Positions 23,898-53,806 are shown, counted from the first letter of the stretch. The stretch: DNA of 64,000 nt from Promethearchaeia archaeon (GCA_029856155.1 JAHQWL010000092.1:1-64000), one strand, 5' to 3'. A program made the numbers and translations. Notes: generated by a model not told the origin, from the sequence alone.

Positions 23898-23900
23898 TAA

Positions 23901-25960: not shown

Positions 25961-27475
25961 ATGAGAGAAGGCGAAAAAGTCAAATTTCCTGGTATGAAAA
26001 GGATGTGGAGAATATTCACAAAAGAAGAATTGGAAGTAGTAGATAATGCTGCTTATAATATTTTAAGCGAAATGGGTGTTCATATTGATGATAAAGAATG
26101 TATAGAGTATCTTAAAGAGACTCCAGTTGAGATCGATGAGAAAGAACTCATCGTGAAGTTTCCTGAGTATTGGGTTCGAGAAATGATCGGTCGTGCCCCA
26201 AGAACTTATTTACTTGCGGGAAGAGATCCAAAAAGAGATTTACATGTGACAAGCCCTCAAAGAGACTTTTATGCTTTAATTACAAGCGGATCTACAAAAT
26301 ATTATGAATGGGATGATACTGCTAATAAATGGATTTCTAAAATACCTGGGGAGGAAGAAGTGATAAAAGCATTTAAAATGGTCGATGGTTTAGACCAATA
26401 TGAAGGATTTTTTGGTACACTTCTGGAAGATGTTAAAAAAACACAACAAGGTCTTCCTGCGGAACTTCACACTTTATATAATAAAATGAAATATTCAACT
26501 AAATTTGGAGGGCCTACTGCTATTACGGAAGGAGGTCTTGCTGAATGGGATTATGTAGGAAAGCTAGCCGCTGAAGTTCAAGGTGGTTTCGATGAATTGA
26601 CAAAACGTCCCATAATCGCAGGATTACCAACATGCATCGGGCCTTTGACAAGCACTCGGCAGAATTTCTGGGCAGCTGTAGGAAGTGCAAAGTATCATTT
26701 ACCTACATTCCCATATTGGGGAGGGATTTCCCCATTTACTGCTCCAGCAACAGCACTTGGACAAGTTGTACTAGCTGTTGCTTGTTGTCACTATGCCATG
26801 GCAGTCTCTCAATATCTTGATCCTGGGACAGCCACTTGTCCATGGCCGATGTGTACATCAACTGATCCTAATACTGGTCAATTAGCAGGTATTCCTTCAG
26901 CTAGATACGTTCATGCAATGGGAATGCAACTTTATCAAGATCTATATAATCTTGTAGTTTCGCAGTGTTCTTATTGTTTAACAACTTCTCTAGATGAAGC
27001 TGCTACTGCATGGTTATCTTCAGTTTCAACTAATACTTTGCTAGGGGGAAATATAGTACAATTTGGAACAACACCCCAAGCATTTATGTTTGAAACAATA
27101 CCAATAGGAGCAACCCTTTTGGATTTGGTTAGAGGGTCACTTTTTGCACAGAATGAATTTATTTCCAGATTTGATGATGAACATCTCGCTTTGGATGTGA
27201 TCAAAGAAGTAGGGCCAAAGGGTATGTTTACCACCCATCCACATACATTAAAATGGATAGATCCTGCAAAAGGATTATATTGGCGCGCAAAAGATTGGAT
27301 TCATGAACATGCTGATCAATGGCTTGCTAAAGGTGCAAAAAGTTGGGTATATGACACCTGTCGACAGCGTTTAAAAGAGTTGGAAAAGCACGAACCAGAA
27401 CCAATAGCAAAAGATGTAGATGAGCGTTGTAATGCTTTATTAAAACAAGCAGATGAAGAACTGGCACTCTTTTAA
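25961..27475 (+). CDS. MttB (trimethylamine methyltransferase) superfamily protein, non-pyrrolysine, copy 1
   Basis: About 500 aa; IL.EMGV, V.FP..V.E.I..AP..Y.L.GR, APAT..G and LALDVIKEVGP.G.F..HPHT MttB motifs; no in-frame TAG. Confidence 0.85.
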   Translation: MREGEKVKFPGMKRMWRIFTKEELEVVDNAAYNILSEMGVHIDDKECIEYLKETPVEIDEKELIVKFPEYWVREMIGRAPRTYLLAGRDPKRDLHVTSPQRDFYALITSGSTKYYEWDDTANKWISKIPGEEEVIKAFKMVDGLDQYEGFFGTLLEDVKKTQQGLPAELHTLYNKMKYSTKFGGPTAITEGGLAEWDYVGKLAAEVQGGFDELTKRPIIAGLPTCIGPLTSTRQNFWAAVGSAKYHLPTFPYWGGISPFTAPATALGQVVLAVACCHYAMAVSQYLDPGTATCPWPMCTSTDPNTGQLAGIPSARYVHAMGMQLYQDLYNLVVSQCSYCLTTSLDEAATAWLSSVSTNTLLGGNIVQFGTTPQAFMFETIPIGATLLDLVRGSLFAQNEFISRFDDEHLALDVIKEVGPKGMFTTHPHTLKWIDPAKGLYWRAKDWIHEHADQWLAKGAKSWVYDTCRQRLKELEKHEPEPIAKDVDERCNALLKQADEELALF

Positions 27476-27596
27476 TGAGTGAATAATTTAATATAATTTC
27501 TATTTTTTTTATTGATTTTCCTTTTTTTTAAATAGATTTAACCTTTAAAACAAGTATAAATTTTATTTAATACACCATAAAAGAGAATATAAATAA

Positions 27597-27614
27597 TGCT
27601 TGAAATAGCAAGCA
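27597..27614. promoter_or_regulatory. Palindromic operator TGCTTG-aaatag-CAAGCA
   Basis: Perfect 6-bp arms with 6-nt spacer, upstream of the B12-domain gene; recurs in the island. Confidence 0.7.
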
Positions 27615-27711
27615 AATAATATTTATGGTATTTCTTCCAATCGTCCTCTAATGTCATAGGAAATTAGATATTTCTAAATTTAAAATACATACTTATTTTA
27701 ATTCTTTAAAT

Positions 27712-28092
27712 ATGGAAAAAATAGACATTATAATAGGAAATGTAAAAGACGAGATCCATAACATTGCAAAGACTATACTTGTGAAAGAGATTGAAAAAAT
27801 TGGTCTTAACGCATTGGATTTAGGAATTTCAGTTCCAGTCGAAAAGTTTGTCGAGAAAATTAAGGAAACAGATGTAAAAATATTGGTACTTACTGGATTA
27901 CTCAACTCTGCCCCAGAGTACATGAGGCAAATTAGTAAAAAGCTTCGAGAGGAAGGGATAAGAGATGATGTGAAAATTCTTATCGGTGGACCTAATGTTA
28001 ACGAAGATTGGTTGAAAAGATCAGAAGCAGATGCTTTTGCGAATAATATTTCAGAGGGAATCAAAATATTATGTTCTTGGAAAGATAGGTAG
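27712..28092 (+). CDS. Stand-alone cobalamin-binding (Rossmann) domain protein
   Basis: G.V.DEIHNIAK (degenerate DxHxxG), DLG..VP.EKFV, LTGLL, ILIGG; no cap domain. Confidence 0.85.
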   Translation: MEKIDIIIGNVKDEIHNIAKTILVKEIEKIGLNALDLGISVPVEKFVEKIKETDVKILVLTGLLNSAPEYMRQISKKLREEGIRDDVKILIGGPNVNEDWLKRSEADAFANNISEGIKILCSWKDR

Positions 28093-28151
28093 TTTTTCCT
28101 AAAAACTAAATTAAAATTTTGTTTTATTATTTTTCAATAAAGATGAGATTA

Positions 28152-28796
28152 TCATTTAAATATTGAATTAAATATTGTTTTTTCTATTTTTCTAATATGC
28201 TCGGTGATTGCACTTTGAGAAATGCCGAAATGTTCTGCTAAATCTGAGGAATTAATCTTACGGGGTATTTCAAAATATCCATTCTCTACTGCGTAATATA
28301 TTATTTCTTTTTGACGCTCAGTTAATAACAGAGAAAGATGTTTCGCATCTGGAACAATTGTAGAGATGTTAAGTATTTTAAAATCATTTCCATATCTATT
28401 TACTTGATCTTCTATGAGTTGATCAATGGTATCAACATCAGCTATCATAGACGTGATTAATTGATTGCCTTCCTTAATTAAAGGCGGTTCTATCAAGATA
28501 TTAAGGTTTGAGAATAGTTGTTTCATCTCATCGACCCACTGATGTTTAATAATACAAACATACTCTTTTTTATTTTTATCTTCTGCTATAACTTCTATAT
28601 AATCAATTCCAAATTGGCCCTCTAGCTCTTTAGGATGAAAATTAGGGTCTTTAAATTTAAGCTTATTAGTACCATACATCATATTTTCGCTTAATCGATG
28701 AACTTGAACTAATTCATAACCATCAAGTAAATCGAATAATTCTTTATATTCATCCGGAAGAGGAGCTTTATATACAAGCTTTTTTAGTCGTTTCAT
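28152..28796 (-). CDS. HTH-10 (Bat-type) transcriptional regulator, copy 1
   Basis: C-terminal LTERQKEI...A...GYFEIPRK....LA..FGIS....EH.RKIE. Confidence 0.9.
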   Translation of the reverse strand: MKRLKKLVYKAPLPDEYKELFDLLDGYELVQVHRLSENMMYGTNKLKFKDPNFHPKELEGQFGIDYIEVIAEDKNKKEYVCIIKHQWVDEMKQLFSNLNILIEPPLIKEGNQLITSMIADVDTIDQLIEDQVNRYGNDFKILNISTIVPDAKHLSLLLTERQKEIIYYAVENGYFEIPRKINSSDLAEHFGISQSAITEHIRKIEKTIFNSIFK

Positions 28797-28834
28797 AGTT
28801 TAGAATTTATCTAAAAAATAAAGATATTTATAAT

Positions 28835-28852
28835 TGCTTGTGTTCGCAAGCA
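28835..28852. promoter_or_regulatory. Palindromic operator TGCTTG-tgttcg-CAAGCA
   Basis: Lies in the divergent promoter between HTH-10 copy 1 and MttB-like copy 2. Confidence 0.75.
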
Positions 28853-28924
28853 TAATAAATTTTTGTCAAACAAATTTTATAACTTTGCTTCTATACTTAA
28901 TAGAAAAAAAATCATAAAATTGAG

Positions 28925-30448
28925 ATGATTATTATTAGAGAAGGAGAAAAAGTAAAATTTCCAAGTTATGATAAATTACTACGGCTAGCAACAGAAGAAC
29001 AATTAAAACTTTTTGATTCGGCAGCTTATAGAATTCTGAGTGAAATGGGTGTGCATATTGATGATAAGGAAGCTATCGAGTATTTTAAAGATACTCCCGT
29101 CGAAATTGATGAGAAAGAGCTCATTTTTAGATTTCCTGAGTACTGGGTTCGGGAAATGATCGCAAAGGCGCCATCTTCATACGTTCTTGCGGGTCGTAAT
29201 CCCAAAAATGATTTACCAATTACAGGTCCCAAAAGAGATTATTATATCTTACCTGCAGCAGGAGCAACGAAACAATACAAATGGAATGAATCGTTAGATC
29301 AATGGGAATCTAGTATAACTGATTTCAACGATGTATATGAAAGTACTAAGATGATGGATGCAATTGATACGTATGAAGGACTATCTAATAGTATAGTTGA
29401 AGATGTCAAATCTTCTCATGCAGGACTTCCAGCAGAACTACATGCTGCGTACGCAAAGTGGAAAGGAACATCTAAATTCATAGGACCAATTGCTATAACA
29501 GAAGGGGGTACTGCTGAATGGGATTATCTTGCACAGATGGCAGCGGAAGTTCAAGGTGGTTATGATGAGTTTCGAAAACGCCCCATAATAGGCTGTTTAC
29601 CTACAGCTATTGGACCATTGACTTCTACACGACAGAATTTTTGGGCAATGGTGGGAGGAGCAAAACATCATATACCTAGCTTTCCATATTGGGGGGGCAC
29701 AGCTCCATTCACTGCACCTGCAACTCCAGCGTCACAAATAGCTTTATCACTGGCATGTACTCATTATGGAATTGCCGTGTCGCAATATTTGTCTCCTGGA
29801 ACAGCTGCACTGCCCTGGGTAATATGTACAGCAGTTGATCCGAATTCCGGACAACTAGCTCAAGCTCCAATGTTTTTACTAACTCATGGAATTGGAAATC
29901 AAGTGTACCAAGATTTATATGGTATTGCTACATTTGGATGTGCCCATGCCTTAAATGGTTCCTTAGAAGAAGTTGCTACTGGCTGGATGACAAATCTACT
30001 TACATTGACTCTTATGGGTTTGAATGTTCTTCAATTTGGAGGCCCTCCAAATGCATTTATGTGGGAAGCCTTACCGATGGGTGAATCAATCGTTAATTAT
30101 GTAAAACAATTTTTATTCAATATGAATAATAGCTTATTTCCTGAGGATGAGGATGCCTTGTCACTTAAAACAATTCTGGAAGTGGGACCAAAAGGAAGAT
30201 TTGCTACTCATCCACATACCTTAAAATATATTGATCCCAAGAAGGGATTATATTGGTATTCTAAAGATTGGATTCATGAACATTCGGATCAGTGGTTAGC
30301 AAAAGGAGGAAAACGTTGGGCATATGACACTTGTAGAGAACGATTGAAAGAGTTGGCAAAGCACGAACCTGAACCTTTAGGAAAGGATGTTGAGGAACGA
30401 CTTCAGTCAATATTGAAAGAAGCAGATGAGGAATTAGCATTATTCTAA
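28925..30448 (+). CDS. MttB superfamily methyltransferase, non-pyrrolysine, copy 2
   Basis: Clear paralogue of 25961 (shares EMGVHIDD, ITEGG.AEWDY, TSTRQNFWA, DWIHEH, ADEELALF). Confidence 0.85.
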   Translation: MIIIREGEKVKFPSYDKLLRLATEEQLKLFDSAAYRILSEMGVHIDDKEAIEYFKDTPVEIDEKELIFRFPEYWVREMIAKAPSSYVLAGRNPKNDLPITGPKRDYYILPAAGATKQYKWNESLDQWESSITDFNDVYESTKMMDAIDTYEGLSNSIVEDVKSSHAGLPAELHAAYAKWKGTSKFIGPIAITEGGTAEWDYLAQMAAEVQGGYDEFRKRPIIGCLPTAIGPLTSTRQNFWAMVGGAKHHIPSFPYWGGTAPFTAPATPASQIALSLACTHYGIAVSQYLSPGTAALPWVICTAVDPNSGQLAQAPMFLLTHGIGNQVYQDLYGIATFGCAHALNGSLEEVATGWMTNLLTLTLMGLNVLQFGGPPNAFMWEALPMGESIVNYVKQFLFNMNNSLFPEDEDALSLKTILEVGPKGRFATHPHTLKYIDPKKGLYWYSKDWIHEHSDQWLAKGGKRWAYDTCRERLKELAKHEPEPLGKDVEERLQSILKEADEELALF

Positions 30449-30465
30449 AGCGAGGTGAATAAAAA

Positions 30466-31134
30466 ATGGCAAGTAAAGAAGAAATCATTAATGGAATGAA
30501 AGACGCTATTATAACCTACAATAAAGCACAATGTTTAGAGCTCGCCAAGCAAGGGATTGCAGAAAAAGTAAAATCTTTAGAATTAATACAAGAAGGACTA
30601 ACTCCTGCAATACAGGAACTCGGAGAGAAATTCGGAAGAGGTGAGATTGCTCTTCCATATCTCATGGTGGGCGCAGAAGCTATGCAAGAAGCTCTTAATT
30701 ACATCTTGGAAACCATGCCTAAAGGAGAATATAAACCGAAAGCAAAAATGGTACTCGGGACCGTAAAAGGAGATATTCATGATTTAGGAATTAGTATCGT
30801 AGAAGCTGTGTTTCAAGCTAATGGAATCCAAGTGTATAATCTCGGTCGCGATAATCCCAAAGAAAAGTTTGTGGAAAAGGCAGAAGCTGAAGAGGCAGAC
30901 ATTATCGGTACGTCAGCCTTGCTCACAGGTACTATGTTCGAGCAGAAAGTTGTTATCGAATATTTAAAGAAGCAAGGACTCCGAGACAAATATATCTATC
31001 TGATTGGAGGAGGTGCTTGTCCTTCCAGCGAATGGTGTGATGAGATCGGTGCAGATGGATGGGCTACTGATGTTATGCTCGGGCTCGATGCTGCTAAAAA
31101 AGCTTTAGCAGAAAAGAAGGGAATAGAAATTTAA
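30466..31134 (+). CDS. Methyltransferase cognate corrinoid protein (MttC/MtbC-like), copy 1
   Basis: Cap domain plus GTVKGDIHDLG, SALLT and IGGG; GAGGTGA SD. Confidence 0.93.
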   Translation: MASKEEIINGMKDAIITYNKAQCLELAKQGIAEKVKSLELIQEGLTPAIQELGEKFGRGEIALPYLMVGAEAMQEALNYILETMPKGEYKPKAKMVLGTVKGDIHDLGISIVEAVFQANGIQVYNLGRDNPKEKFVEKAEAEEADIIGTSALLTGTMFEQKVVIEYLKKQGLRDKYIYLIGGGACPSSEWCDEIGADGWATDVMLGLDAAKKALAEKKGIEI

Positions 31135-31187
31135 ATTTTATTTTTTTATAAATAAATAATAAAAATGATAAAAAAGTAATGTAAAAG

Positions 31188-31520
31188 ATGGTTGATGTAC
31201 AAGAAGGATTTGAATTAATGAAGAAATATTTTAAACCAGAAGTTGCTAAAGAATTTAAGAAGAAAGTGGCTGTTCAATATAATATTAAAGGTCCAGGTGG
31301 AGGTACATGGCAAGTAATCTTTGACAGTGGTAATATGGATATTGTTGAAGGAGAGAAGGAAAATGCTATTCTTAAATTTAACTATGACGCTGTAGAGAGC
31401 TTTATAGGCATTCAAAAAGGAGAGATTGATGGTATACAAGCATATACTATGGGAAAACTCCAAATCGAGGGCCCTATACCTCTAGCTCAAAAACTTGCAG
31501 ACATTTTTAAACGTGAATAG
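31188..31520 (+). CDS. SCP2 sterol/lipid-binding domain protein, copy 1
   Basis: VQYNI.GPGGGTW, G..DG.QAY..GKL.IEG...LA.KL SCP2 pattern. Confidence 0.88.
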   Translation: MVDVQEGFELMKKYFKPEVAKEFKKKVAVQYNIKGPGGGTWQVIFDSGNMDIVEGEKENAILKFNYDAVESFIGIQKGEIDGIQAYTMGKLQIEGPIPLAQKLADIFKRE

Positions 31521-31685
31521 TAAAATATTTATCAATTTTTTTTATTTTTTTGATTTTAAAACCCTAATTTTTAAGGCAAGACGTTTACATTTTTCGAGAT
31601 TAGTTTTTGAATAATTAATGAGAAATTTAAACAAAAAAAGTGAAATTTCAAGAATTTAATAGTAAAAATATTTAAGTTACCTATT

Positions 31686-32591
31686 TTAGTTGATTTTAAA
31701 TACAGGATGAGTTGGAGGAGGCATCTTACCTTCATCGAACAATAATTGAGAATGAGCAGCTTTAATGAATGCAACGTTAGGATATACTAAATTTGCTAAT
31801 TGAATAGGACCATAGAATATGAAGTCTGCTCCCGCTGCTAAAGTAATCGTTGAGGCAACTACTTTTATATATTTTTTGATATGCCCAAATTTAGTAACCA
31901 AATTTATCCAGGAATCTGCTAAATTTTGTCCTGCAGTTCCAGCAGGATATCCATACTTATTTTTTACTTCGTCAATCGTATTAAGAGCAATCCCTAAGGA
32001 TGTAAAGTCAATAATACATGTATCAATTAGAAAGTTATTTTTTTTAAAATTGTAAGACAAAGCTTTTTTTATGAGTTTATCAGTAATTTCCATTCGAGCT
32101 TCAGTTGTCCAGCATTGTGATTCAATAGGAAGAAGAAAAAATGTTTCAATGTCCGTTTGACTTAATAGTTCAAATTCTTCATCATAAGAAGAGGAGGTAA
32201 TTGTATTATATACAACCTCTTTATCTAATCCATGTTCAATAAGATAATTTAGCATTGGTTGCTTAACTTCCCAATAAGGGGCGTCCACAAGAACGGGAGT
32301 ATCGGTAACTGAAAAAACAAAATCTAAAATAGGTTGAATTGATTCCTTAAAAGAAAGAATAACATCGAGTAAGGGTATCAAGCCTGTTTTATCTGCTAAC
32401 TCCTCTTGCTCTTTAATTAATTTTTCAGCATATTCTTTGTTTATTTGACCTTTTCTCTCATCCCTAAAGATTTTTTTCTGCTTTAAGTAAAATATAGTAC
32501 CCGCTAAAGCAGTGGGCACGCTTCTCGGATCTCCACCCACTATATATTTTCCTATCTTGTATGACTTTTGTTCTACGTTATATTTAAACAT
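31686..32591 (-). CDS. MtrH/MtgA-like pterin methyltransferase, divergent copy B
   Basis: PT.L.GTIFY, YNT, LID, K.KYGYP.G, GADF.FYGP; true start MFKYN at 32591 by alignment with the paralogue. Confidence 0.87.
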   Translation of the reverse strand: MFKYNVEQKSYKIGKYIVGGDPRSVPTALAGTIFYLKQKKIFRDERKGQINKEYAEKLIKEQEELADKTGLIPLLDVILSFKESIQPILDFVFSVTDTPVLVDAPYWEVKQPMLNYLIEHGLDKEVVYNTITSSSYDEEFELLSQTDIETFFLLPIESQCWTTEARMEITDKLIKKALSYNFKKNNFLIDTCIIDFTSLGIALNTIDEVKNKYGYPAGTAGQNLADSWINLVTKFGHIKKYIKVVASTITLAAGADFIFYGPIQLANLVYPNVAFIKAAHSQLLFDEGKMPPPTHPVFKIN

Positions 32592-32619
32592 CGGTTTAAA
32601 ACAATTGATATCTTGAATT

Positions 32620-33525
32620 TTATCCAATTTTAAACACTGGATGATTTGTCGGAGCCATTTTTCCTTCATCGAACAATAGTTGTGAATGCGCAGCTTTGAT
32701 GAATGCAACATTAGGGTATATGATGTTCGCATGCTGCACAGGACCATATAGTAAAAAGTCAGCTCCCGCTCCTAAAGTAATACTTGAAGCAACCACTGTC
32801 GCGTATTTTTTAATATCGCCAAATTTCGCTTTTAAATTTCTCCACGTATCCACAGCGTTGTGCGCACCAGATCCTACAGGATATCCATATTTATTCTTTA
32901 CTTCATACATCGCGCTCATTGCTAAACCTAATGATGTAACATCCACAACAGCAGTATCAATTAAGAAGTTATGGTCTGCAAAATTAGCTTCTGTTGCTTT
33001 TTTAACGAGATTACCGATTACGTCCATTCTTGCTTGAGTAGTCCAATTCTTTGATTCCATTCCTAAAAGAATGAAATTTCTGATATTACTTTCAGTTAAT
33101 AAATTATATTCCTCCTCATTGGATTCTGGTGTGAGTGAATTATAAATGATTCTGTCTTGAATCCCCATTTCTTTAACATAGTTTAGTGCATTTATTTTTA
33201 CATCTTGCGTTGGTGCATCTAATATAATAGGAACGTCGGTGACATCTACTACAAAATCAAGAATGGGTTTAATAGATGCTTCATAGGATAAAATTACATC
33301 TAATCCGGGAGTTAAGCCTGTTTTATCTGCCATATCTTCCTGATCTTTAACTAATTTTTCTGCGAAATCCTTGATTATTTCTCCTTTAGACTCATCCCTA
33401 AAAATTCCTTTTTGGCGTAAGTAGAAAATCGTTCCGATTACCGCTGTCGGGACTTCTCTTGTATCTCCACCTATTGTATATTTTCCTATATTATAAGATT
33501 TTTGCTCGACGTTATATTTGAACAT
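32620..33525 (-). CDS. mtrH: MtrH/MtgA-like methylcorrinoid:tetrahydropterin methyltransferase, copy A
   Basis: GTIFY, IYNS, LIDTAV, YGYPVGSGAHNA..TW, GADFLLYGP; AAGGAG SD before MFKYN at 33525. Confidence 0.88.
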   Translation of the reverse strand: MFKYNVEQKSYNIGKYTIGGDTREVPTAVIGTIFYLRQKGIFRDESKGEIIKDFAEKLVKDQEDMADKTGLTPGLDVILSYEASIKPILDFVVDVTDVPIILDAPTQDVKINALNYVKEMGIQDRIIYNSLTPESNEEEYNLLTESNIRNFILLGMESKNWTTQARMDVIGNLVKKATEANFADHNFLIDTAVVDVTSLGLAMSAMYEVKNKYGYPVGSGAHNAVDTWRNLKAKFGDIKKYATVVASSITLGAGADFLLYGPVQHANIIYPNVAFIKAAHSQLLFDEGKMAPTNHPVFKIG

Positions 33526-33593
33526 TATATTTACTCCTTGCAATTAACAAATAATATTATTTTGCGAAAATGAATCACCTTATTTTTAATTTC

Positions 33594-33611
33594 AGCTTGT
33601 TATTTCAAGCA
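33594..33611. promoter_or_regulatory. Palindromic operator AGCTTG-ttattt-CAAGCA
   Basis: 69 nt upstream of the mtrH-like pair; the reverse complement has the same aaataa spacer as the sites at 37953 and 46804. Confidence 0.75.
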
Positions 33612-33638
33612 TCATTAAATTCTACTCTTTTCAAAATT

Positions 33639-34283
33639 TTACTTGAATATAGAAAAAAAAATAGTCCTCTCAATTTTTCGCAAGTGTTCACAAAATGCAC
33701 TTTTAGAAATACCAAAATGATTAGCTATAGTTTCAGAATTAGTTTTACGAGGGATATCATAGTATCCGTGTTCCACTGAATAATAAATAATCTCTTTTTG
33801 TCTTTCTGTTAAGAGTAAATTTAAATTACTCCTATTAGGCTGCACAGAATTGATACTTAAAATTTTGTAGTTATCGCCGTAAATATTTTTCTGTAAATCA
33901 ATAATTGTATCGATATTTGCACCAGGTGTAATATAAGTTATGATTAAAGAATCATCTTCCATAATAATCGGAGGTTCAATTAGGATTTCAGAAACCTTAA
34001 AAAAATTGCGAAGTTCCTCATACCAGCGATGCTTAACAAGACAAATAAATTCATTTTTCTGGGTATCTTTTGCTAAAATTTCGATAAATTCAATTCCAAA
34101 TTTATTTTGAAGATTCTTGGGGTTAAAATCTTTATTTTTAAATTTAAATCGCTGAGTCGCATAGATATGAATATCATCAAACCGGTGAATTTGAAGTAAT
34201 TCATATTTTGTTAATAAATCAAAAAAGTCTTGATAACTAGGGTTAATTGGGATTTTGAGGACAATTTTTTTCAATTTTTTCAT
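33639..34283 (-). CDS. HTH-10 (Bat-type) transcriptional regulator, copy 2
   Basis: LTERQKEI...GYYDIPRK...IA.HFGISKS...EHLRKIE; full-length paralogue of 28152. Confidence 0.9.
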   Translation of the reverse strand: MKKLKKIVLKIPINPSYQDFFDLLTKYELLQIHRFDDIHIYATQRFKFKNKDFNPKNLQNKFGIEFIEILAKDTQKNEFICLVKHRWYEELRNFFKVSEILIEPPIIMEDDSLIITYITPGANIDTIIDLQKNIYGDNYKILSINSVQPNRSNLNLLLTERQKEIIYYSVEHGYYDIPRKTNSETIANHFGISKSAFCEHLRKIERTIFFSIFK

Positions 34284-34369
34284 ATTATTCAGATATATTT
34301 TAGTTCGGATATGTGATTTCTATTCATAAGCATTAATTAACTGATCTGATAACCTAAGACCCAACGAGT

Positions 34370-34375
34370 CAAGCA
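34370..34375 (+). promoter_or_regulatory. CAAGCA half-site upstream of MttB-like copy 3
   Basis: Ends 86 nt before ATG 34461, the same spacing as at copy 1. Confidence 0.45.
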
Positions 34376-34460
34376 CAATTAATATAAATTTATGAATTTT
34401 AAATAAATTGCTATTTTTCAAATCTATTTTAAAGAAATATAATTAAAAAGGGAATAATAA

Positions 34461-35975
34461 ATGAGAGAAGGAGAAAGAGTAAAATATCCTAAAATGAATC
34501 GAATGTGGCGTATCGCATCTAAAGAAGATTTAGAGAGAATCGATAATGCTGCATATCACATTTTAAGTGAAATGGGAGTTTTTATCGATGATAAAGATTG
34601 TATCGAATACTTAAAAGATACTCCATTAGAAATTGATGAAAAGGAACTCATTGTGAAATTTCCAGAATTTTGGGTACGCGAGATGATCGCAAAAGCTCCA
34701 AAATCATATATACTTGCTGCTAGGGATCCTAATAATGATTTATTACTATCAAGTTACCACGACGATTTTTATAACTTATTTACGAGTGGTTCGACGAAAA
34801 TGTATCTTTGGAATGAGCAAACAAATCAATGGGACTCTAGAATTCCCGGTGAAGAAGATGTAATTAGAGGATTTAGGATGATTGATGCTGTGGATGCTTA
34901 TGATGGATTTTTTGGTACACCCGTGGAAGATGTGAAACGAACAAATCAAGGGCTTCCCGCTGAGCTTCATACTACCTATAATAAAATGAAATGGTCTACA
35001 AAACATGGTGGAGTATGTGCGATCACCGAAGGAGGATTAAACGAATGGGACTATGTCGGTAAACTTGCCGCTGAAGTTCAAGGTGGATTTGATGAGTTAA
35101 AAAGACGACCCATAATCGCAGGTTTACCAACCTGCATTGGGCCCATGACTAGTACCCGTCAGAATTTCTGGGCTGCTGTGGGAAGTGCTAAATATCATTT
35201 ACCTACAGTACCTTATTGGGGGGGAACGGCACCATTTACAGCACCCGCAACTGCTCCAGCAATGAATGCAATGGCTTTGGCATGTACGCATTATTGTATA
35301 GCTGTTTCACAATATCTCGATCCTGGAACGGCGGCAGTTCCTTGGCCTAATACTTCACCTGTTGATCCACAATCTGGTCAATTAGCGATAAATCCAATTG
35401 CTACAATGGTACTTGGAATGGGAGGTCAAGTTTATCAAGATTTATATGGTCTTCCTATTGCGGGATGCGCATATTGCTTATCATCATCTTTAGATGAAGC
35501 TGGTGCTACATGGGCATTAAACTTATTAACAGAGTTATTATGGGGAGTGAATGTGCAACAAGTCGGATCCACACCCGGAGCGTTTATGTGGGAAACGATT
35601 CCAATGGGAGAAACATTAGTAAATTATACTAAGCAGTTCTTATTCGAAATGACTGAAGATCTTTTAAATATTGATGAAGAACACTTAGCTTTAGATGTAA
35701 TAAAAGAAACTGGTCCTAAAAAAATGTTCACGACTCATCCTCACACTCTAAAATGGATTGATCCCAAGAGGGGGTTATTCTGGCATGCTAACGACTGGAT
35801 CCATGAACATTCGGATCAATGGCTTGCGAAGGGAGCTAAAACATGGGTTGAAATTTGTCGTGAACGTTTGAAAGAATTAGATAAACATCAACCAGATCCA
35901 CCAATCCCAAAAGATGTAGATGAACGATGTAATGCACTTTTAAAAGAAGCAGATGAGGAACTCGCATTGTTTTAA
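34461..35975 (+). CDS. MttB superfamily methyltransferase, non-pyrrolysine, copy 3
   Basis: Paralogue of 25961 and 28925; shares RPIIAGLPTCIGP and NFWAAVGSAKYHLPT with copy 1. Confidence 0.85.
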   Translation: MREGERVKYPKMNRMWRIASKEDLERIDNAAYHILSEMGVFIDDKDCIEYLKDTPLEIDEKELIVKFPEFWVREMIAKAPKSYILAARDPNNDLLLSSYHDDFYNLFTSGSTKMYLWNEQTNQWDSRIPGEEDVIRGFRMIDAVDAYDGFFGTPVEDVKRTNQGLPAELHTTYNKMKWSTKHGGVCAITEGGLNEWDYVGKLAAEVQGGFDELKRRPIIAGLPTCIGPMTSTRQNFWAAVGSAKYHLPTVPYWGGTAPFTAPATAPAMNAMALACTHYCIAVSQYLDPGTAAVPWPNTSPVDPQSGQLAINPIATMVLGMGGQVYQDLYGLPIAGCAYCLSSSLDEAGATWALNLLTELLWGVNVQQVGSTPGAFMWETIPMGETLVNYTKQFLFEMTEDLLNIDEEHLALDVIKETGPKKMFTTHPHTLKWIDPKRGLFWHANDWIHEHSDQWLAKGAKTWVEICRERLKELDKHQPDPPIPKDVDERCNALLKEADEELALF

Positions 35976-35992
35976 AGAGAGGTGAATTATAA

Positions 35993-36661
35993 ATGACAAG
36001 TAAAGAAGAAATAATTAATGGAATGAAAGATGCTATTATAACCTATAACAAGGCAAAATGCTTGGAACTCGCTAAGCAAGGAATAACCGAAAAAGTAAAC
36101 TCTTTAGAATTAATACAAGAAGGATTAACTCCCGCGATACAGGAACTCGGAGAGAAATTCGGGAGAGGCGAAATTGCTCTTCCATACCTCATGGTGGGCG
36201 CGGAAGCGATGCAGGATGCATTAAACTACATCTTAGAAACCATGCCAAAAGGAGAATATAAACCGAAAGCAAAAATGGTACTCGGGACCGTAAAAGGAGA
36301 TATTCATGATTTAGGAATTAGTATCGTAGAAGCTGTGTTTCAAGCGAATGGAATTCAAGTGTATAATCTCGGTCGCGATAATCCCAAAGAAAAGTTTGTG
36401 GAAAAGGCAGAATTAGAAGAAGCAGATATTATTGGCACATCCGCTTTGCTCACAGGCACCATGTTCGAACAGAAAGTTGTTATTGAATACTTGAAAAAGC
36501 AAGGCCTTCGAGACAAGTATATCTACTTGATCGGAGGAGGAGCATGTCCTTCTAGTGAATGGTGCGATGAGATTGGTGCTGATGGATGGGCTACCGATGT
36601 GATGCTCGGACTTGATGCTGCTAAGAAATCATTGGCAGAAAAGAAAGGAATCGAACTTTAA
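35993..36661 (+). CDS. Cognate corrinoid protein, copy 2
   Basis: 8 aa differences out of 222 versus 30466 (hand count); GDIHDLG motif; GAGGTGA SD. Confidence 0.93.
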   Translation: MTSKEEIINGMKDAIITYNKAKCLELAKQGITEKVNSLELIQEGLTPAIQELGEKFGRGEIALPYLMVGAEAMQDALNYILETMPKGEYKPKAKMVLGTVKGDIHDLGISIVEAVFQANGIQVYNLGRDNPKEKFVEKAELEEADIIGTSALLTGTMFEQKVVIEYLKKQGLRDKYIYLIGGGACPSSEWCDEIGADGWATDVMLGLDAAKKSLAEKKGIEL

Positions 36662-36725
36662 TTTAATTTTTTTTTTAAATTTAGAATAAATTAATAATAA
36701 AAATAAAAGAGGAATGATATAAAAG

Positions 36726-37058
36726 ATGGTTAATGCACAAGAAGGATTTGAAATAATGAAGAAGAACTTCAAACCAGAAGTTGCCAAGGAGTTTAAGAAA
36801 CGAGTGGTTGTTCAATATAATATAGAAGGTCCTGGTGGTGGGACATGGCAAGTTAGTTTTGATAATGGCAAAATAGAAATTGTAGAAGGAGAGAAAGAAA
36901 AAGCCGTTCTAAAATTTAATTATGATTGCATAGAGAGTTTTGTTGGGATCCAAACAGGAGAAGTGGATGGCATTCAAGCATACACAACGGCCAAATTACG
37001 AATTGAAGGACCCATTGCCCTTGCTCAACAAATCGGAAAGATTTTTGGCGCTGTTTAA
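36726..37058 (+). CDS. SCP2 sterol/lipid-binding domain protein, copy 2
   Basis: Paralogue of 31188 with the same length and motifs. Confidence 0.88.
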   Translation: MVNAQEGFEIMKKNFKPEVAKEFKKRVVVQYNIEGPGGGTWQVSFDNGKIEIVEGEKEKAVLKFNYDCIESFVGIQTGEVDGIQAYTTAKLRIEGPIALAQQIGKIFGAV

Positions 37059-37091
37059 ATCGATTATTAAACGAAGGAGTTGTGATACAAC

Positions 37092-37865
37092 GTGTTAAAA
37101 GATAAAGTTGCTGTAATAACTGGTGGAGCACAAGGGATTGGACATGCTATCGCAACAAAATTTGCTGAAGCTGGTGCTAACATCGCTATAATTGATATAA
37201 AAGATTCATCAAAAATAGTTGATAAAGTAAAAAACTATGGAGTAGATGTGATTGCTTTCAATGCTGATGTGTCTGATGAGGATGCAATGAAAAGTGCATT
37301 CGATAAAATCATAGAAAAATGGGATAAAATAGACATTCTAGTGAATAATGCAGGAATTTATCCATTAGAGCGCTTTACTGATATTCCAATAGCTTTAGTT
37401 AAAAAAGTTTTTGATACCAATGTTATCGGAACCTACATCTGCAGTCAGATTGCCGCAAATATATTCATTTCTAACTCAATTGAAGGTATAATTCTTAATA
37501 TGGCTTCGGCAGCAGGAATTACTCCCGATAAATATCATTTACATTATGCTGCATCCAAAGCTGCTATAATTTCATTAACAAAAGGAATGGCAATGGAATT
37601 GATAAACGACAAAATACGAGTTAATGCAATCGCACCTGGAGCAGTTGCTACAGAAGGAGCAAGAAACCCTGGACTTTTTGAAAAGTCTGGTAAAATTCCA
37701 GATAAATTTATGGAAATGCAAATGAAAAAATTTTCTCCTTTAGCCAAATCTGGGATGGGAGAACCAATGGATATTGCTAATATGGCATTATATCTCGTTT
37801 CGGAACAAGCTAAATATATCACGGGAACAATTATTTCGGTAGATGGAGGACGACTTTTATTATAA
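37092..37865 (+). CDS. Classical SDR oxidoreductase (FabG/hydroxysteroid dehydrogenase-like)
   Basis: TGGAQGIG, NNAG, catalytic S, YAASK, VNAIAPG, VDGG; acidic residue after beta2 (IDIK) suggests NAD(H). Confidence 0.92.
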   Translation: MLKDKVAVITGGAQGIGHAIATKFAEAGANIAIIDIKDSSKIVDKVKNYGVDVIAFNADVSDEDAMKSAFDKIIEKWDKIDILVNNAGIYPLERFTDIPIALVKKVFDTNVIGTYICSQIAANIFISNSIEGIILNMASAAGITPDKYHLHYAASKAAIISLTKGMAMELINDKIRVNAIAPGAVATEGARNPGLFEKSGKIPDKFMEMQMKKFSPLAKSGMGEPMDIANMALYLVSEQAKYITGTIISVDGGRLLL

Positions 37866-37952
37866 TTGAGAATCCCAAATTATCTTTTTTTTTTAATATC
37901 TGATTAGGATTAAAAAAAGTTTATAACATTTTATTATGAATAACTTTTCAAT

Positions 37953-37970
37953 TGCTTGAAATAACAAGCA
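37953..37970. promoter_or_regulatory. Palindromic operator TGCTTG-aaataa-CAAGCA
   Basis: 89 nt upstream of the RACo-like gene. Confidence 0.75.
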
Positions 37971-38058
37971 AAATTGATATAAAAATTATAACATTTTTCT
38001 TCACAAGATTTTATTATTTAATATCCAATCATTATTAATATAAATTCTAGACAAAAAA

Positions 38059-39963
38059 ATGAGTAAAATTAACATTATTTTTCAGCCCGAAGGAAAACGA
38101 GTTGAAGTTGAGAAAGAAGATTCGATTTTATCTGCTGCTTTAAAAGTTGGAATTGATTTAACGTCAATATGTGCTGGGAAAGGAATTTGTGGTAAATGTA
38201 AGGTAATAATAGACGATACAAAAGCAGTAAATGATCTCACTTACAAGGAACTCGAACTTCTCACACTAGAAGAAAGGGAAAATGGTGTTCGATTAGCTTG
38301 TTTTACGAAGATCAAAGATGAGGTTGTAGTAAAAGTCCCGGAATATAGTAGGACGGGAAAACAACGCCTTCAAATTGAAGGTATCGAAACGCCTATTAAA
38401 CTAAATCCAGTTGTTAAAAAGTATTATATTGAATTGGAAGTTCCCACTTTGGAGGATCCACGAGCAGATTCAGATCGAATCATTGATTATCTACATAATA
38501 TGTTTAATCTTTCTAATTTAAGTTTAGATTATAATCTAATAAAAAATTTAGCTACATATGTGCGTGGAGCGGATTGGAAATTCACAGCAGTTATATGGCA
38601 AGATATTATTATTAGCATTGAACCGGATGATACAACTGATCGTATTTTTGGTTATGCTGTGGACATAGGAACTACAAAACTAGCGGGATATATTGTAAAT
38701 CTAAATACGAGTGAAGTTGTTGCTGCGGGTTCATTAATGAATCCACAAATACCCTTTGGAGAAGATGTTATCTCAAGATTAAATCATCCAGAACAAGAGA
38801 AATTGCAAAAGGTTGTTGTTGAAGGGATAAATCAAATATTAGAGTCCTTAAAAGAGAAGGTAGGAGTGAGATCCAAAGAGATTTATGAAATGACTGTTGT
38901 AGGAAATACAATTATGCATCATCTTTTTCTGGGTATTTTTCCTTTATACGTTGGACGTTCCCCTTATCCCCCTGTTTTAAGAAGCTCAATTATAATTAAT
39001 GCGAAAGAGATTGGAATAAATTTGCATCCTAATGCTAAAATTATGGTCTTACCAACAATTGCAGGTTTTGTTGGAGCAGACACTGTTGGTGTAATTTTAT
39101 CAACAGAATTATATAAAAAAAGTGAGATTTGTCTTGCTATTGACATTGGTACAAATACTGAAGTTGTCTTAGGTAATCAAGACAACATGATGGCCGCATC
39201 TTGCGCCTCTGGACCTGCATTTGAGGGGGCTCATATTAAATTTGGGATGCGAGCTGCTAGTGGCGCGATAGAGAAAATAAAAATTAATTCAAAAACATTA
39301 GATGTTGATTATGAAACTATTGATAATGAACCTCCTATAGGTATTTGTGGTTCAGGAATGATAGATTTAGTTGCTGAGATGATAAGAACTGGTATCATAG
39401 ATGTGGGGGGTATATTTAATCGACAATTAAACAATCCACGAGTGAGGATGAATGAAGACAAAGTTATGGAATATATTGTTGTACCCTCTGATCAAACAGC
39501 AAATAAACGGGATATAACATTCTCTCAAAAGGATGTTTCACAAATTATTTTAGCCAAAGCTGCGATGCATACAGGGGTCAAACTCTTATTAAAAAACTCC
39601 AATATTAAAAAAGAGGACATCCAAAGTGTGTTTTTAGCAGGAGCTTTCGGGTCTCACATTAATAAAGAGAGTGCTCGAATGATTGGTGTTTTTCCTGAAA
39701 TTGATTTGGATAAAATCATAGCTGTAGGAAATGCTGCTGGAACAGGCGCAAGGATGTGTTTAGTTTCAAAAGAAGCTAAGGAGATTTCCGACAAGATTTC
39801 TGAAAAAGTAAATTATCTCGAGCTTGGGATCGATCCAGACTTTCAAAAAATATTTTTAAATTCACACATTATTCCCTACGCAGATTTAGACGAATTTCCC
39901 CAAACTTCTAAAATTTTAAAAGAATATAATAATTATCCAACAACACCACCTCCAAGGTTTTAA
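38059..39963 (+). CDS. RACo/DUF4445-type ATP-dependent reductive activator of corrinoid proteins
   Basis: N-terminal 2Fe-2S C.G.G.CGKC...RLAC; DIGTT, GEDVISR, GFVGAD, DIGTN.E, GPAFEG, GICGSG, LAGAFG, GNAAG.GA. Confidence 0.93.
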   Translation: MSKINIIFQPEGKRVEVEKEDSILSAALKVGIDLTSICAGKGICGKCKVIIDDTKAVNDLTYKELELLTLEERENGVRLACFTKIKDEVVVKVPEYSRTGKQRLQIEGIETPIKLNPVVKKYYIELEVPTLEDPRADSDRIIDYLHNMFNLSNLSLDYNLIKNLATYVRGADWKFTAVIWQDIIISIEPDDTTDRIFGYAVDIGTTKLAGYIVNLNTSEVVAAGSLMNPQIPFGEDVISRLNHPEQEKLQKVVVEGINQILESLKEKVGVRSKEIYEMTVVGNTIMHHLFLGIFPLYVGRSPYPPVLRSSIIINAKEIGINLHPNAKIMVLPTIAGFVGADTVGVILSTELYKKSEICLAIDIGTNTEVVLGNQDNMMAASCASGPAFEGAHIKFGMRAASGAIEKIKINSKTLDVDYETIDNEPPIGICGSGMIDLVAEMIRTGIIDVGGIFNRQLNNPRVRMNEDKVMEYIVVPSDQTANKRDITFSQKDVSQIILAKAAMHTGVKLLLKNSNIKKEDIQSVFLAGAFGSHINKESARMIGVFPEIDLDKIIAVGNAAGTGARMCLVSKEAKEISDKISEKVNYLELGIDPDFQKIFLNSHIIPYADLDEFPQTSKILKEYNNYPTTPPPRF

Positions 39964-40013: not shown

Positions 40014-41753
40014 ATGAAAACTATTGAAAAAACAAGAAAAGGAACACTTAAAAGTTTTGATCCTCAAATTTATAATGAAGCAATTAAGGCTCTAAAAGAT
40101 GAAGATGTCAGAATTATAAACTTTGAAGTAACTCGAATAATTGCTAAAGTGATTAGAACGATGTATGGTCCTAAAGGGTTGGATAAAATGATCGTTCCTG
40201 TATCAAATGAGGCTGAAATAACTCAAAAGGGATATAAAGTTGTAAAAAGCTTTAAAAATAGATTCCCCATTTCTTTAATGCTAATTGAATTGGTTACAAC
40301 ACAAGAAGATAATTGTGGAGATGGTACAAAGACAACATTACTTTTTACAGCATTATTGTTAGAGAAGGCTAAGGAAATGATGAGCTTGGGTGTTTCACCT
40401 CAAACTATTAATAAGGGTTTTTCTTTAGCTTTAGAAAAATCGTTAGAAATATTGGAAGATAATGTTATACCCTATATATCTCAAGATAATGAAGTACTAA
40501 TGAGTATTATTGCATCCGTTATGCATGGTAAATTTTCATCTCAAATAAAGGAACATTATATGAATCTGGTTCTAACAACCCTTGAAAAAAATGAAAATCT
40601 TTTTTTAGAAACCTCCGAATTTGATTTTACGGATATTTTATATAGAAAGGAGCAAGGAAGAAGTACTTATGATTCAGAATTAGTTAATGGGATGATCATT
40701 TATAAGGATAAACCTAATTTATCGCTTCCTAATAAAATAATTAACTCTAAAATATTACTAGTTCAGAAAAGCCTTGATTTTTTTGTTCCTGGAAATCAGG
40801 AGCCGTATAGTAGACAAGTTGAAATTAAGAGCGTGGAGAAATATCAGTCATTTTCCCGATTTCATAATGATTATTATCAGAATCTAGCAAAATTTTTTAA
40901 ACAAAAAGGAATTAATGTAATCCTTTCTCAAAAAAAGATTAATTCACTTCTAATTGACTACTGTGCAAGTATAAATATCATTGCATTGGAATTGGTAGGA
41001 GAGAAAGAGATGAAAAAATTATCTAAATTATTAGATGTTCCAGTAATCTCAAGTATTAATGACTTTTCTGAAGATCAATTAGGATTCGCAAACTTAGTAG
41101 AATTTAGGAAAGTAAGTGGCGATGAGATGTTTTTTATCCATTTAGAGAATTCAAAAATTTTAACCTTTTTATTACGTGGAGGAATATCATATGCTGCCGA
41201 TCAATTAGAAGAAAATCTACAAGGATCTTTAAGAGTAGCGACCCAAACACTTAAAGACAAAAAACTTTTACCAGGAGGTGGGGCATTAGACTGTGAGCTT
41301 TCTCGAATACTCAAAATCTATGCAGGGGAATTTCCTAATAAATATCAAATGGTAATTAGCGAATATGCTAAAGCATTAGAAAGTTTACCTGGTTACTTAA
41401 TTTTAAATTCAGCGGGAGATCCACTCGAAATTATACCTAAATTACGCGAAACTCATTTAAATGGTAAAAAATTAGAAGGATTTAATTGTAATACAAAGAA
41501 AATAGTTGATGTGTTAAAAGAGGGAATTTTTGACGGATATATGGTTAAGAAACACGCATTAAAAATAGCTACTGAGATGGCTCGCCAGATTGTCCGGGTT
41601 GATGCTTTAGTTATGGTATATGATCGAAAATTATATGAAAAGATCGAAAAAGAAGGGAAAGAAGTTAAAAGTCAGAAACATCAAGAAAAGGTGCGAAAAT
41701 ATCTCAACAAAAAAGATGAGGATTTATTCTCTGATCTTTATAATTCTAAATAA
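40014..41753 (+). CDS. Divergent group II chaperonin (thermosome/TCP-1)-like protein
   Basis: YGPKGLDKMIV, GDGTKTT, G.SP..I..G, LLRGG, PGGGA, A.ALE.LP, G..D...VK..A...ATE.A..I.RVD. Confidence 0.85.
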   Translation: MKTIEKTRKGTLKSFDPQIYNEAIKALKDEDVRIINFEVTRIIAKVIRTMYGPKGLDKMIVPVSNEAEITQKGYKVVKSFKNRFPISLMLIELVTTQEDNCGDGTKTTLLFTALLLEKAKEMMSLGVSPQTINKGFSLALEKSLEILEDNVIPYISQDNEVLMSIIASVMHGKFSSQIKEHYMNLVLTTLEKNENLFLETSEFDFTDILYRKEQGRSTYDSELVNGMIIYKDKPNLSLPNKIINSKILLVQKSLDFFVPGNQEPYSRQVEIKSVEKYQSFSRFHNDYYQNLAKFFKQKGINVILSQKKINSLLIDYCASINIIALELVGEKEMKKLSKLLDVPVISSINDFSEDQLGFANLVEFRKVSGDEMFFIHLENSKILTFLLRGGISYAADQLEENLQGSLRVATQTLKDKKLLPGGGALDCELSRILKIYAGEFPNKYQMVISEYAKALESLPGYLILNSAGDPLEIIPKLRETHLNGKKLEGFNCNTKKIVDVLKEGIFDGYMVKKHALKIATEMARQIVRVDALVMVYDRKLYEKIEKEGKEVKSQKHQEKVRKYLNKKDEDLFSDLYNSK

Positions 41754-44409: not shown

Positions 44410-44410
44410 T

Positions 44411-46803: not shown

Positions 46804-46821
46804 AGCTTGAAATAACAAGCT
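46804..46821. promoter_or_regulatory. Palindromic operator AGCTTG-aaataa-CAAGCT
   Basis: 72 nt upstream of the SCP2-like gene at 46893. Confidence 0.75.
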
Positions 46822-52961: not shown

Positions 52962-53609
52962 TTAACTGAATATTGTGTGATAAATTATTTTTTCTATTTT
53001 CCGCAAATGTTCATATAATGCACTCCGAGAAATTTTAAAATGATTCGCGATTTTCTTTGAATTGATTCTACGAGGTATTTCAAAATATCCATGCTGAATA
53101 GCGTAATACACAATTTCTTTCTGACGGTCTGTTAATTTTAAAAAAAGATTTTCATAGTTAACTTTTATGTTAGATATGCTTAGAATCTCCAATTTTCCTT
53201 CATAAAAGTGATTTAAGGAATTAACGAATTCATCAATATTTTTACTTTCTGTTATAATACTTACTAAAAGACGATCTTTATCTAGAATAATAGGAGGATC
53301 GATAATCAGATCTAGTTTATCGAGGAATTCTTTCGTTTCCTTAACCCAGTTATGCTTAGAAAAGAAAATGTATTCTTTATTCCCCCTATCCTCATTTATC
53401 ACTTCTATATATGACATCCCATAATGTTCGCCTTCCAACATTTTCGGATGCATTTTAGGATCCTTGAATTTTACCTTCTGTGTTGCAAAGATTTGATCCT
53501 CGTCTTGACGGTGTATTTGGAGTAATTCATATTTTTCCAATAGGTCAAAGAATTCCTTAGACTTTGGATCTAAAGGTATTTTCAGAACAATCTTTTTTAA
53601 TTGCTTCAT
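52962..53609 (-). CDS. HTH-10 (Bat-type) transcriptional regulator, copy 3
   Basis: LTDRQKEI...GYFEIPRR...IA.HF.IS....EHLRKIE; paralogue of 28152 and 33639. Confidence 0.9.
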   Translation of the reverse strand: MKQLKKIVLKIPLDPKSKEFFDLLEKYELLQIHRQDEDQIFATQKVKFKDPKMHPKMLEGEHYGMSYIEVINEDRGNKEYIFFSKHNWVKETKEFLDKLDLIIDPPIILDKDRLLVSIITESKNIDEFVNSLNHFYEGKLEILSISNIKVNYENLFLKLTDRQKEIVYYAIQHGYFEIPRRINSKKIANHFKISRSALYEHLRKIEKIIYHTIFS

Positions 53610-53639: not shown

Positions 53640-53657
53640 AACTTGAATTTTCAAGCT
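53640..53657. promoter_or_regulatory. Palindromic operator variant AACTTG-aatttt-CAAGCT
   Basis: Divergent promoter of HTH-10 copy 3 and the hydrolase; extra half-site CAAGCA at 53748-53753. Confidence 0.6.
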
Positions 53658-53716: not shown

Positions 53717-53806
53717 GTTAGATTAAAATGGATTTAAAAATTAATATCAAGCACTTTTCATAATTAAAAAAAAAATAACTAAATAAAAAAAAATAGGTGT
53801 ATTATT

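Follow-up and report, generated by a model that had tools for sequence, protein, structure and literature searches.

A deep MttB methyltransferase clade of Asgard archaea linked to SCP2 proteins and possibly repurposed for corrinoid-dependent demethylation of lipophilic substrates

In corrinoid-dependent methyl transfer, a methyltransferase I (MT1) places the substrate methyl group on Co(I), a methyltransferase II (MT2) passes it to a pterin, and the activator RACo re-reduces Co(II) with ATP. Here, we analyzed a stretch of 64,000 nucleotides from a Promethearchaeia archaeon (GCA_029856155.1, JAHQWL010000092.1:1-64000; hereafter the window), in which positions 25,961 to 39,963 hold an island of such genes together with genes for SCP2 proteins. 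By sequence comparison, the three MT1 enzymes of the island (MT1a, MT1b and MT1c) form a deep, well-supported non-pyrrolysine clade of the MttB superfamily. We hold with moderate confidence that the island serves to strip methyl groups catabolically from a donor that is not a betaine and is probably lipophilic, with tetrahydromethanopterin (H4MPT) as acceptor and SCP2 as a shuttle. More tentatively, we propose that an archaeal MttB lineage may have been repurposed for B12-dependent demethylation of lipids or of long-chain methyl ethers, esters or amines, with the SCP2 shuttle and a private chaperonin.

Pfam profile searches recovered every gene of a preliminary description of this DNA at its place, including the full, clustered set of MT1, corrinoid protein, MT2 and activator. 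The HTH_10 regulators, the operator palindromes, a further SCP2-like gene and a thermosome paralog were not on that list (Table 1). The suspected Asgard origin was likewise borne out by the names of the close MT1 homologues (Lokiarchaeota/Promethearchaeota and Helarchaeota). Genomes of the host family carry the label Promethearchaeota (Lokiarchaeia), and the host is a Lokiarchaeia-type Asgard archaeon with a 97% complete genome of 4.1 Mb. In independent coastal-sediment and salt-marsh runs, contigs span all of the stretch and differ little from it, which excludes an assembly artefact as the source of the three MT1 paralogs.

The MT1 proteins match PF06253 with 95-111 bits (cut-off 25). Their genes contain neither an in-frame stop nor an internal amber codon, the pyrrolysine-type profile TIGR02369 scores about 150 against a cut-off of 525, and Cys or Tyr occupies the pyrrolysine region. 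An AlphaFold2 model of MT1c (pLDDT 92) reveals an MttB-type TIM barrel with a C-terminal extension, which matches 7xcl, 9yce, 2qne and 4yyc with TM scores of 0.81-0.86, while the score to MtmB is about 0.5. Sequence identity to the solved MttB members is 18-20%. In a FastTree of 265 MttBs all three paralogs fall inside a Loki/Helarchaeota core of 40 tips (support 1.0, long stem), nested in a clade of 68 tips (support 1.0) that includes Jordarchaeia, Freyarchaeia and a Ca. Methanomethylicus-like locus. This placement rests on the 197 other MttBs in the tree and on alignments to PDB entries. The distribution is narrow: MT1c has matches at E<=1e-40 in 16/400 Asgard genomes and in none of 53 congeneric ones, whereas some MttB is present in 283 of the 400. 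Elsewhere in the host genome (C98 43272-45980, locus L033) a fourth MttB, of the ordinary type, occurs together with a corrinoid protein but no SCP2.

The second hallmark of the island is SCP2. Both proteins match PF02036 with about 43 bits (cut-off 21.3), and the fold is backed by an AlphaFold2 model and Foldseek, with SCP2 domains of alkylsulfatases among the top structural matches. The corrinoid genes and the SCP2 genes that follow them are 53 and 64 nt apart. The preliminary description had stressed that this adjacency occurs in both MT1-corrinoid modules. The adjacency is real, but the modules are duplicates (corrinoid proteins 96%, SCP2 75% and MT1 60-69% identical), so that within the window alone the link is seen once and not twice. 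Fifteen Loki/Helarchaeota core loci had sufficient flanking sequence, and in all of them (15/15) an SCP2 gene is found at most about 0.8 kb from MT1, even though gene orders vary (MT1-SCP2-SDR-corrinoid-RACo in a Helarchaeote, for example). It is also near MT1 in 11 of 17 deeper loci, the most basal branch included. As a control, 40 ordinary Asgard MttB loci (512 kb) contained neither an SCP2 gene nor the thermosome paralog. With only about nine SCP2 open reading frames in the whole 4.1-Mb host genome and none in the control loci, the link exceeds chance. At least two distinct SCP2 subfamilies occupy the MT1-adjacent slot (short tree, weak deep nodes), the core SCP2 tree roughly parallels the MT1 tree, and additional SCP2 copies gather in the islands, one of them under the same operator. 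The predicted complex of MT1c and SCP2c scored 0.01 against a mark of 0.32 and was used as evidence neither way.

A thermosome paralog accompanies the clade as well. It is the third of three thermosome subunits in the genome and lacks both catalytic aspartates, with TQKG and EENLQG replacing TNDG and ERxxxD. It groups apart from the housekeeping subunits, its tree splits as the MT1 tree does, and it is linked to MT1 in 8/15 core and 12 deeper loci, a count that leaves out the canonical subunit beside locus L115.

Outside MT1 loci, fusions join the island SCP2 subfamily to aldehyde:ferredoxin oxidoreductases, whose genes lie behind HTH_10 genes, and to a glycyl-radical activase; elsewhere in Asgard archaea this subfamily adjoins AMP-forming acyl-CoA ligases, MaoC dehydratases, a thiolase and a tannase-like hydrolase. 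In Promethearchaeota CR_4 the gene immediately upstream of MT1 encodes an FAD-dependent oxidoreductase, resembling amine oxidases and desaturases, in fusion with an island-type SCP2 (L023:7660-9525). Since these partners are enzymes of chain-bearing organics, the contexts would fit a shuttle for such compounds better than a corrinoid-specific assembly factor. SCP2 folds also serve enzymes with hydrophobic substrates in UbiJ/UbiT of ubiquinone synthesis (10.1101/587956; PDB 6h6p) and in the alkylsulfatases SdsA1, Pisa1 and YjcS; their chemistry is unrelated, and a carrier role in the island is our proposal. The aldehyde:ferredoxin oxidoreductases from two Asgard genomes (L194:2205-4865 and L195:2308-4974) bear a pair of SCP2 domains at the N terminus, are encoded behind a divergent HTH_10 gene and are candidate long-chain aldehyde oxidoreductases. 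Loci L193 (1508-7399) and L196 combine an acyl-CoA ligase-like gene, the glycyl-radical activase-SCP2 fusion and a PFL-like glycyl-radical enzyme; the host genome encodes at least seven glycyl-radical enzymes of this kind.

We next consider the residues that line the MT1 pocket. MtgB binds glycine betaine through Y97, R312, H348 and F356, and its R312L mutant is inactive (PMC13080624). R312 is present in all quaternary-amine enzymes of known function, whereas the Y97/F356 pair is not conserved across them (PMC13080624). In alignments of the MT1 clade, Y97 is replaced by S/A, R312 by A/S/T/C and H348 by V/F, and the F356 column falls into a loop deletion of four residues. None of the 40 core sequences retains the R312 equivalent. 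Across six barrel segments, charged residues number 0.6 in the core clade compared to 3.8 in other MttBs, and Y252, W253, F259 and W295 are conserved aromatics.

Several observations weigh against a lipophilic donor delivered by SCP2. Averaged over the barrel segments, hydropathy is the same as in ordinary MttBs (0.58 vs 0.55); given the few charges, the aligned pocket is uncharged rather than demonstrably greasier. What the alignments support is a nearly uncharged pocket unlike that of the betaine enzymes. Moreover, the arginine at the R312 column is also missing in 72% of outside MttBs, and the pocket was read from alignments at about 20% identity, not from three-dimensional coordinates. As to the linkage, SCP2 is missing near MT1 in all eight Jordarchaeia/Freyarchaeia loci (0/8), and at least three further loci hold a clade MT1 without a nearby SCP2. 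In Freyarchaeia G117 a corrinoid protein, a URO-D-fold MT1 and SCP2 lie beside degenerate chaperonins. Furthermore, related genomes are not independent samples, and the SCP2 locus figures are counts without a statistical test. The conserved linkage therefore stands for the core and most deeper loci, but SCP2 is neither obligatory for nor specific to MttB. The G117 cluster (L179:1-12300) comprises RACo, a chaperonin, a DsrEFH-like trio, MtrH, a fused double chaperonin, the corrinoid protein, a 458-aa URO-D-like methyltransferase, SCP2 and a GcvH-like protein.

These observations lend themselves to another explanation, in which a class of archaeal corrinoid methyltransferase systems would use SCP2 as a general accessory subunit, in assembly, membrane tethering or the handling of cofactor or pterin, much as it would use the private chaperonin. 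The donor would then be small or only mildly hydrophobic, for instance an amine lacking an acid group, a methoxylated aromatic or a methyl sulfide. The company that SCP2 and degenerate chaperonins keep with an unrelated MT1 in G117, the Jordarchaeia branch with MT1 and chaperonin but no SCP2, and the barrel hydropathy all agree with it, and the tannase/feruloyl-esterase-like gene behind the third HTH_10 gene could supply methoxylated aromatics. Against it stand the 40 ordinary MttB-corrinoid loci, all of which do without an SCP2, and the fusion of the same SCP2 subfamily to non-corrinoid enzymes (aldehyde:ferredoxin oxidoreductase, glycyl-radical activase and the FAD oxidoreductase). We consider this explanation unlikely, yet serious.

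An ordinary demethylase of betaine, carnitine or choline, with SCP2 as a hitch-hiking neighbor, is improbable. All characterized non-pyrrolysine MttBs use such donors (PMC13080624), the published annotation of Asgard MttBs assumes them (PMC11291895), and the four conserved aromatics could still cage a cation. On the contrary, the equivalents of R312, without which MtgB loses activity, and of H348 are missing, and the SCP2 link outlasts both rearrangement and the swap to another SCP2 subfamily.

Similarly improbable is a steroid substrate, demethylated at carbon as by AbeABC of Phosphitispora TUW77 (PMC11912376) or methylated as by EmtABCD of Denitratisoma (10.1101/714501; PMC7448270), in which EmtAB is the counterpart. 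These precedents share with our proposal cobalamin-dependent methyl transfer on a lipophilic molecule, the SCP2 family binds sterols in eukaryotes, and 7-alpha-hydroxysteroid dehydrogenase is among the PDB matches of the short-chain dehydrogenase/reductase (SDR), though not the best one. Both systems are bacterial, however, and the papers mention no SCP2 or other carrier. EmtA and AbeA are MtmB-like, unlike the MttB-fold MT1 (TM 0.86 vs 0.5 to MtmB), so that, as the preliminary description had it, they are analogues only. Abe feeds the Wood-Ljungdahl pathway and needs a 1-dehydro steroid (PMC11912376) and a 3-oxosteroid 1-dehydrogenase; no full-length FAD_binding_2 (PF00890) protein of this KstD type was found in the 97% complete genome, the best match being partial and NadB/SdhA-like (E 2e-14), which is an indirect test. 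The occurrence of the MT1 clade in Jordarchaeia and the Methanomethylicus-like locus argues against steroids too, and C19 demethylation of a steroid, one of the donors once suggested, is unlikely. The SDR itself is of the generic classical kind and occurs in just 8/15 core loci; the idea that it primes the substrate by redox found no support. RNA reads assembled into three contigs of 151 nt over SDR and RACo in the only run, too little to be informative on expression.

The remaining components are those of a methyl transfer chain. The DxHxxG motif is intact in both complete corrinoid proteins and degenerate, with the His retained, in the B12-binding-only gene. MtrH copy a has 8z9u as its best PDB match (E 2e-66) and MtgA at E 4e-41; the island proteins do not reach the equivalog cut-offs of MtgA and MtgC. 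Mch and CdhC are present in the host genome and Fhs was not found in it, which makes H4MPT the more likely acceptor; of the two acceptors named earlier, tetrahydrofolate is thus the less likely. In the Ca. Methanomethylicus-like locus a clade MT1 is paired with an MtaA-type coenzyme M methyltransferase. This swap, the patchy distribution and the apparent regulation speak for the catabolic direction. Corrinoid methyl transfers can run in either direction, and a steroid is methylated by Emt; even so, the use of methyl-H4MPT to methylate a lipid presented by SCP2 is very improbable indeed, given a patchy (0/53 congeneric genomes), apparently inducible island, the expansion of MT1 paralogs and the coenzyme M partner in a methanogen-like locus.

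Taken together, we propose for catabolic demethylation that MT1 would transfer the methyl group to the Co(I) corrinoid, and an MtrH-type MT2 would pass it on to H4MPT and the archaeal Wood-Ljungdahl pathway, with RACo reactivating the Co(II) corrinoid at the expense of ATP. The donor would be neutral or cationic and poorly soluble, and not a betaine-type acidic quaternary amine; its body may be alkyl, acyl, isoprenyl or aryl-alkyl, carrying an O-methyl ether or ester or an N-methyl lipid headgroup. We presume alkyl ferulates, alkyl methyl ethers, methoxy-archaeol and choline lipids to be candidates. SCP2 would ferry the donor or its demethylated product, which the SDR more likely handles than it primes the substrate. 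The degenerate thermosome may be a private folding or assembly helper, and the three MT1 paralogs probably serve related substrates.

The HTH_10 regulators may govern all units via one palindrome, WGCTTG-N6-CAAGCW, which precedes the B12-only gene, MT1b, the MtrH pair and RACo. Four sites stand against 0.12 expected in the window, all three perfect copies of the 4.1-Mb genome sit in the island, and the palindrome recurs at equivalent positions in loci L019, L020, L038, L055 and L056. A genome-wide scan gave no convincing regulon members outside; the best outside match lies inside an HdrA-like gene. A fifth site precedes a 141-aa gene and a leucine-rich repeat (LRR) gene, a pair that also adjoins the island in loci L019, L038 and L055. 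The 141-aa gene is probably a divergent SCP2, with a Pfam SCP2 match below cut-off (E 0.0075), homologues at E 0.006-0.03 and an hhalign E of 0.0015; PDB searches did not confirm it. In the window, genes for an 840-aa protein with a VWA domain and for a 787-aa protein that matches no family (41887-46774) separate this pair from the chaperonin paralog, unlike in L019, where the pair lies directly beside it.

A weaker operator-like site at 53640 lies between the third HTH_10 paralog and the tannase-like gene. Homologues of this gene adjoin island-type SCP2 genes in other Asgard loci (L198, L199 and L201), and PDB searches gave no classification of the protein; that it belongs to the island regulon is only suggestive. 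It has 48% GC within a window of about 31%, and its open frame begins about 70 codons before the first ATG, so that the start may be non-canonical or mutated.

Table 1. Features of the corrinoid island and its surroundings, with positions in the window.
Feature	Position	Strand	Evidence
MT1a, non-pyrrolysine MttB-superfamily MT1, deep clade, 504 aa	25961..27475	+	PF06253 94.6 bits; 69% identical to MT1c; tree
Palindromic operator-like site, upstream of B12-only gene	27597..27614	.	motif scan
Stand-alone B12-binding domain, 126 aa, no cap domain	27712..28092	+	PF02310; gene also in locus L034
HTH_10 regulator a, divergent from MT1b	28152..28796	-	PF04967
Operator-like palindrome, between HTH_10 a and MT1b	28835..28852	.	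motif scan
MT1b, 507 aa	28925..30448	+	PF06253 110.7 bits
Corrinoid protein b, 222 aa	30466..31134	+	PF02607+PF02310
SCP2 b, 110 aa	31188..31520	+	PF02036 43.5 bits
MtrH-family MT2 copy b, 301 aa from likely start 32591	31686..32591	-	PF02007; start from homologues
MtrH-family MT2 copy a, 301 aa, likely start 33525	32620..33525	-	PF02007; PDB matches
Operator-like palindrome, upstream of MtrH pair	33594..33611	.	motif scan
HTH_10 regulator b, divergent from MT1c	33639..34283	-	PF04967; 52% to regulator a
MT1c, 504 aa, modelled MttB TIM barrel	34461..35975	+	PF06253; AlphaFold2; structural matches
Corrinoid protein c, 222 aa	35993..36661	+	Pfam; 96% to copy b
SCP2 c, 110 aa	36726..37058	+	PF02036; fold
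Classical SDR	37092..37865	+	profile and PDB matches
Operator-like palindrome, upstream of RACo	37953..37970	.	motif scan
RACo ATP-dependent corrinoid activator, 634 aa	38059..39963	+	PF00111/17650/17651/14574
Thermosome (group II chaperonin) paralog without both catalytic aspartates	40014..41753	+	PF00118; tree; motifs
Fifth operator-like site	46804..46821	.	position weight matrix score 24.1
Probable divergent SCP2-like gene, 141 aa	46893..47318	+	profile/HMM comparisons
LRR gene, after the 141-aa SCP2-like gene	47428-48741	.	BLAST
Third HTH_10 paralog	52962..53609	-	sequence comparison; 47-50% to regulators a and b
Possible satellite: tannase/feruloyl-esterase-like serine hydrolase, GxSxG intact	53783..56212	+	sequence comparison

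Among known systems, the nearest architecture is that of MtgB/MtgC/MtgA with a RamA-like activator in Desulfitobacterium hafniense and of MtpB, MtcB, MtyB and MthB in Eubacterium limosum (PMC13080624). As in the Mtg-type systems, a non-pyrrolysine MttB-fold MT1, its cognate corrinoid protein, an MtrH-family MT2 and an ATP-dependent activator lie in one cluster. Unlike MtgB, to which they are about 20% identical, the island MT1s do not conserve the four betaine-binding residues, and the island adds SCP2, an HTH_10 regulon and a degenerate thermosome, with H4MPT as the probable acceptor. The pyrrolysine-containing MttB/MttC of Methanosarcina (PDB 7xcl/7xcn) has the same TIM-barrel fold (TM 0.86), while the island MT1s lack the amber codon. 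Closer in origin are the Asgard MttB, corrinoid and MtrH clusters of Freyarchaeia and Atabeyarchaeia, which were called 'previously uncharacterized' and proposed to act on quaternary amines, sterol carriers and chaperonins going unmentioned (PMC11291895); the SRVP19 Freyarchaeia genome holds a sister-clade MT1 (locus L049). Two further candidates were rejected: the Bathyarchaeia 'MtgB' is an unrelated protein of about 300 aa and not an MttB-type O-demethylase, and the chloromethane methyltransferase CdmB has a URO-D fold. In the literature searched, which left most subscription journals out of reach, we found no description of an archaeal MttB-SCP2 module, in line with the preliminary description. 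The architecture as such is of the known MtgABC-like kind; none of the papers searched describes the clade or its uncharged pocket, nor the SCP2 partner, regulon and private chaperonin that go with it.

Further genes surround the island. A two-subunit ATP-citrate lyase (aclB-aclA, 22608-25736) lies directly upstream, an MtaA/URO-D-family protein (14914-15957) lies 10 kb upstream beside MFS transporters, and an isocitrate/isopropylmalate dehydrogenase-family gene is found at 51068-52261. Beyond the window, on C92 (72047-82555), open reading frames resemble a lysine fermentation cluster with lysine aminomutases and accessory genes, as judged by eye from the N-terminal sequences and from a B12-binding match.

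To our knowledge, the characterized enzymes of the MttB superfamily all use small amines, and its thousands of members have been annotated on that basis. With a clade that combines an uncharged pocket and a lipid carrier, corrinoid demethylation would reach a new class of substrates. Since the components are small and soluble and a standard spectroscopic assay exists, the substrate question is directly testable. Under the proposed function, an Asgard member of the SCP2 family, whose lipid-transfer fold also occurs in eukaryotes (PMC12139934), would gain a concrete role. If the proposal is true, Asgard archaea and a methanogen lineage would take methyl groups directly from sedimentary lipids, revealing an unrecognized entry of methylated lipids or lipophilic plant and algal compounds into the anaerobic C1 metabolism of coastal sediments and possibly into methanogenesis.

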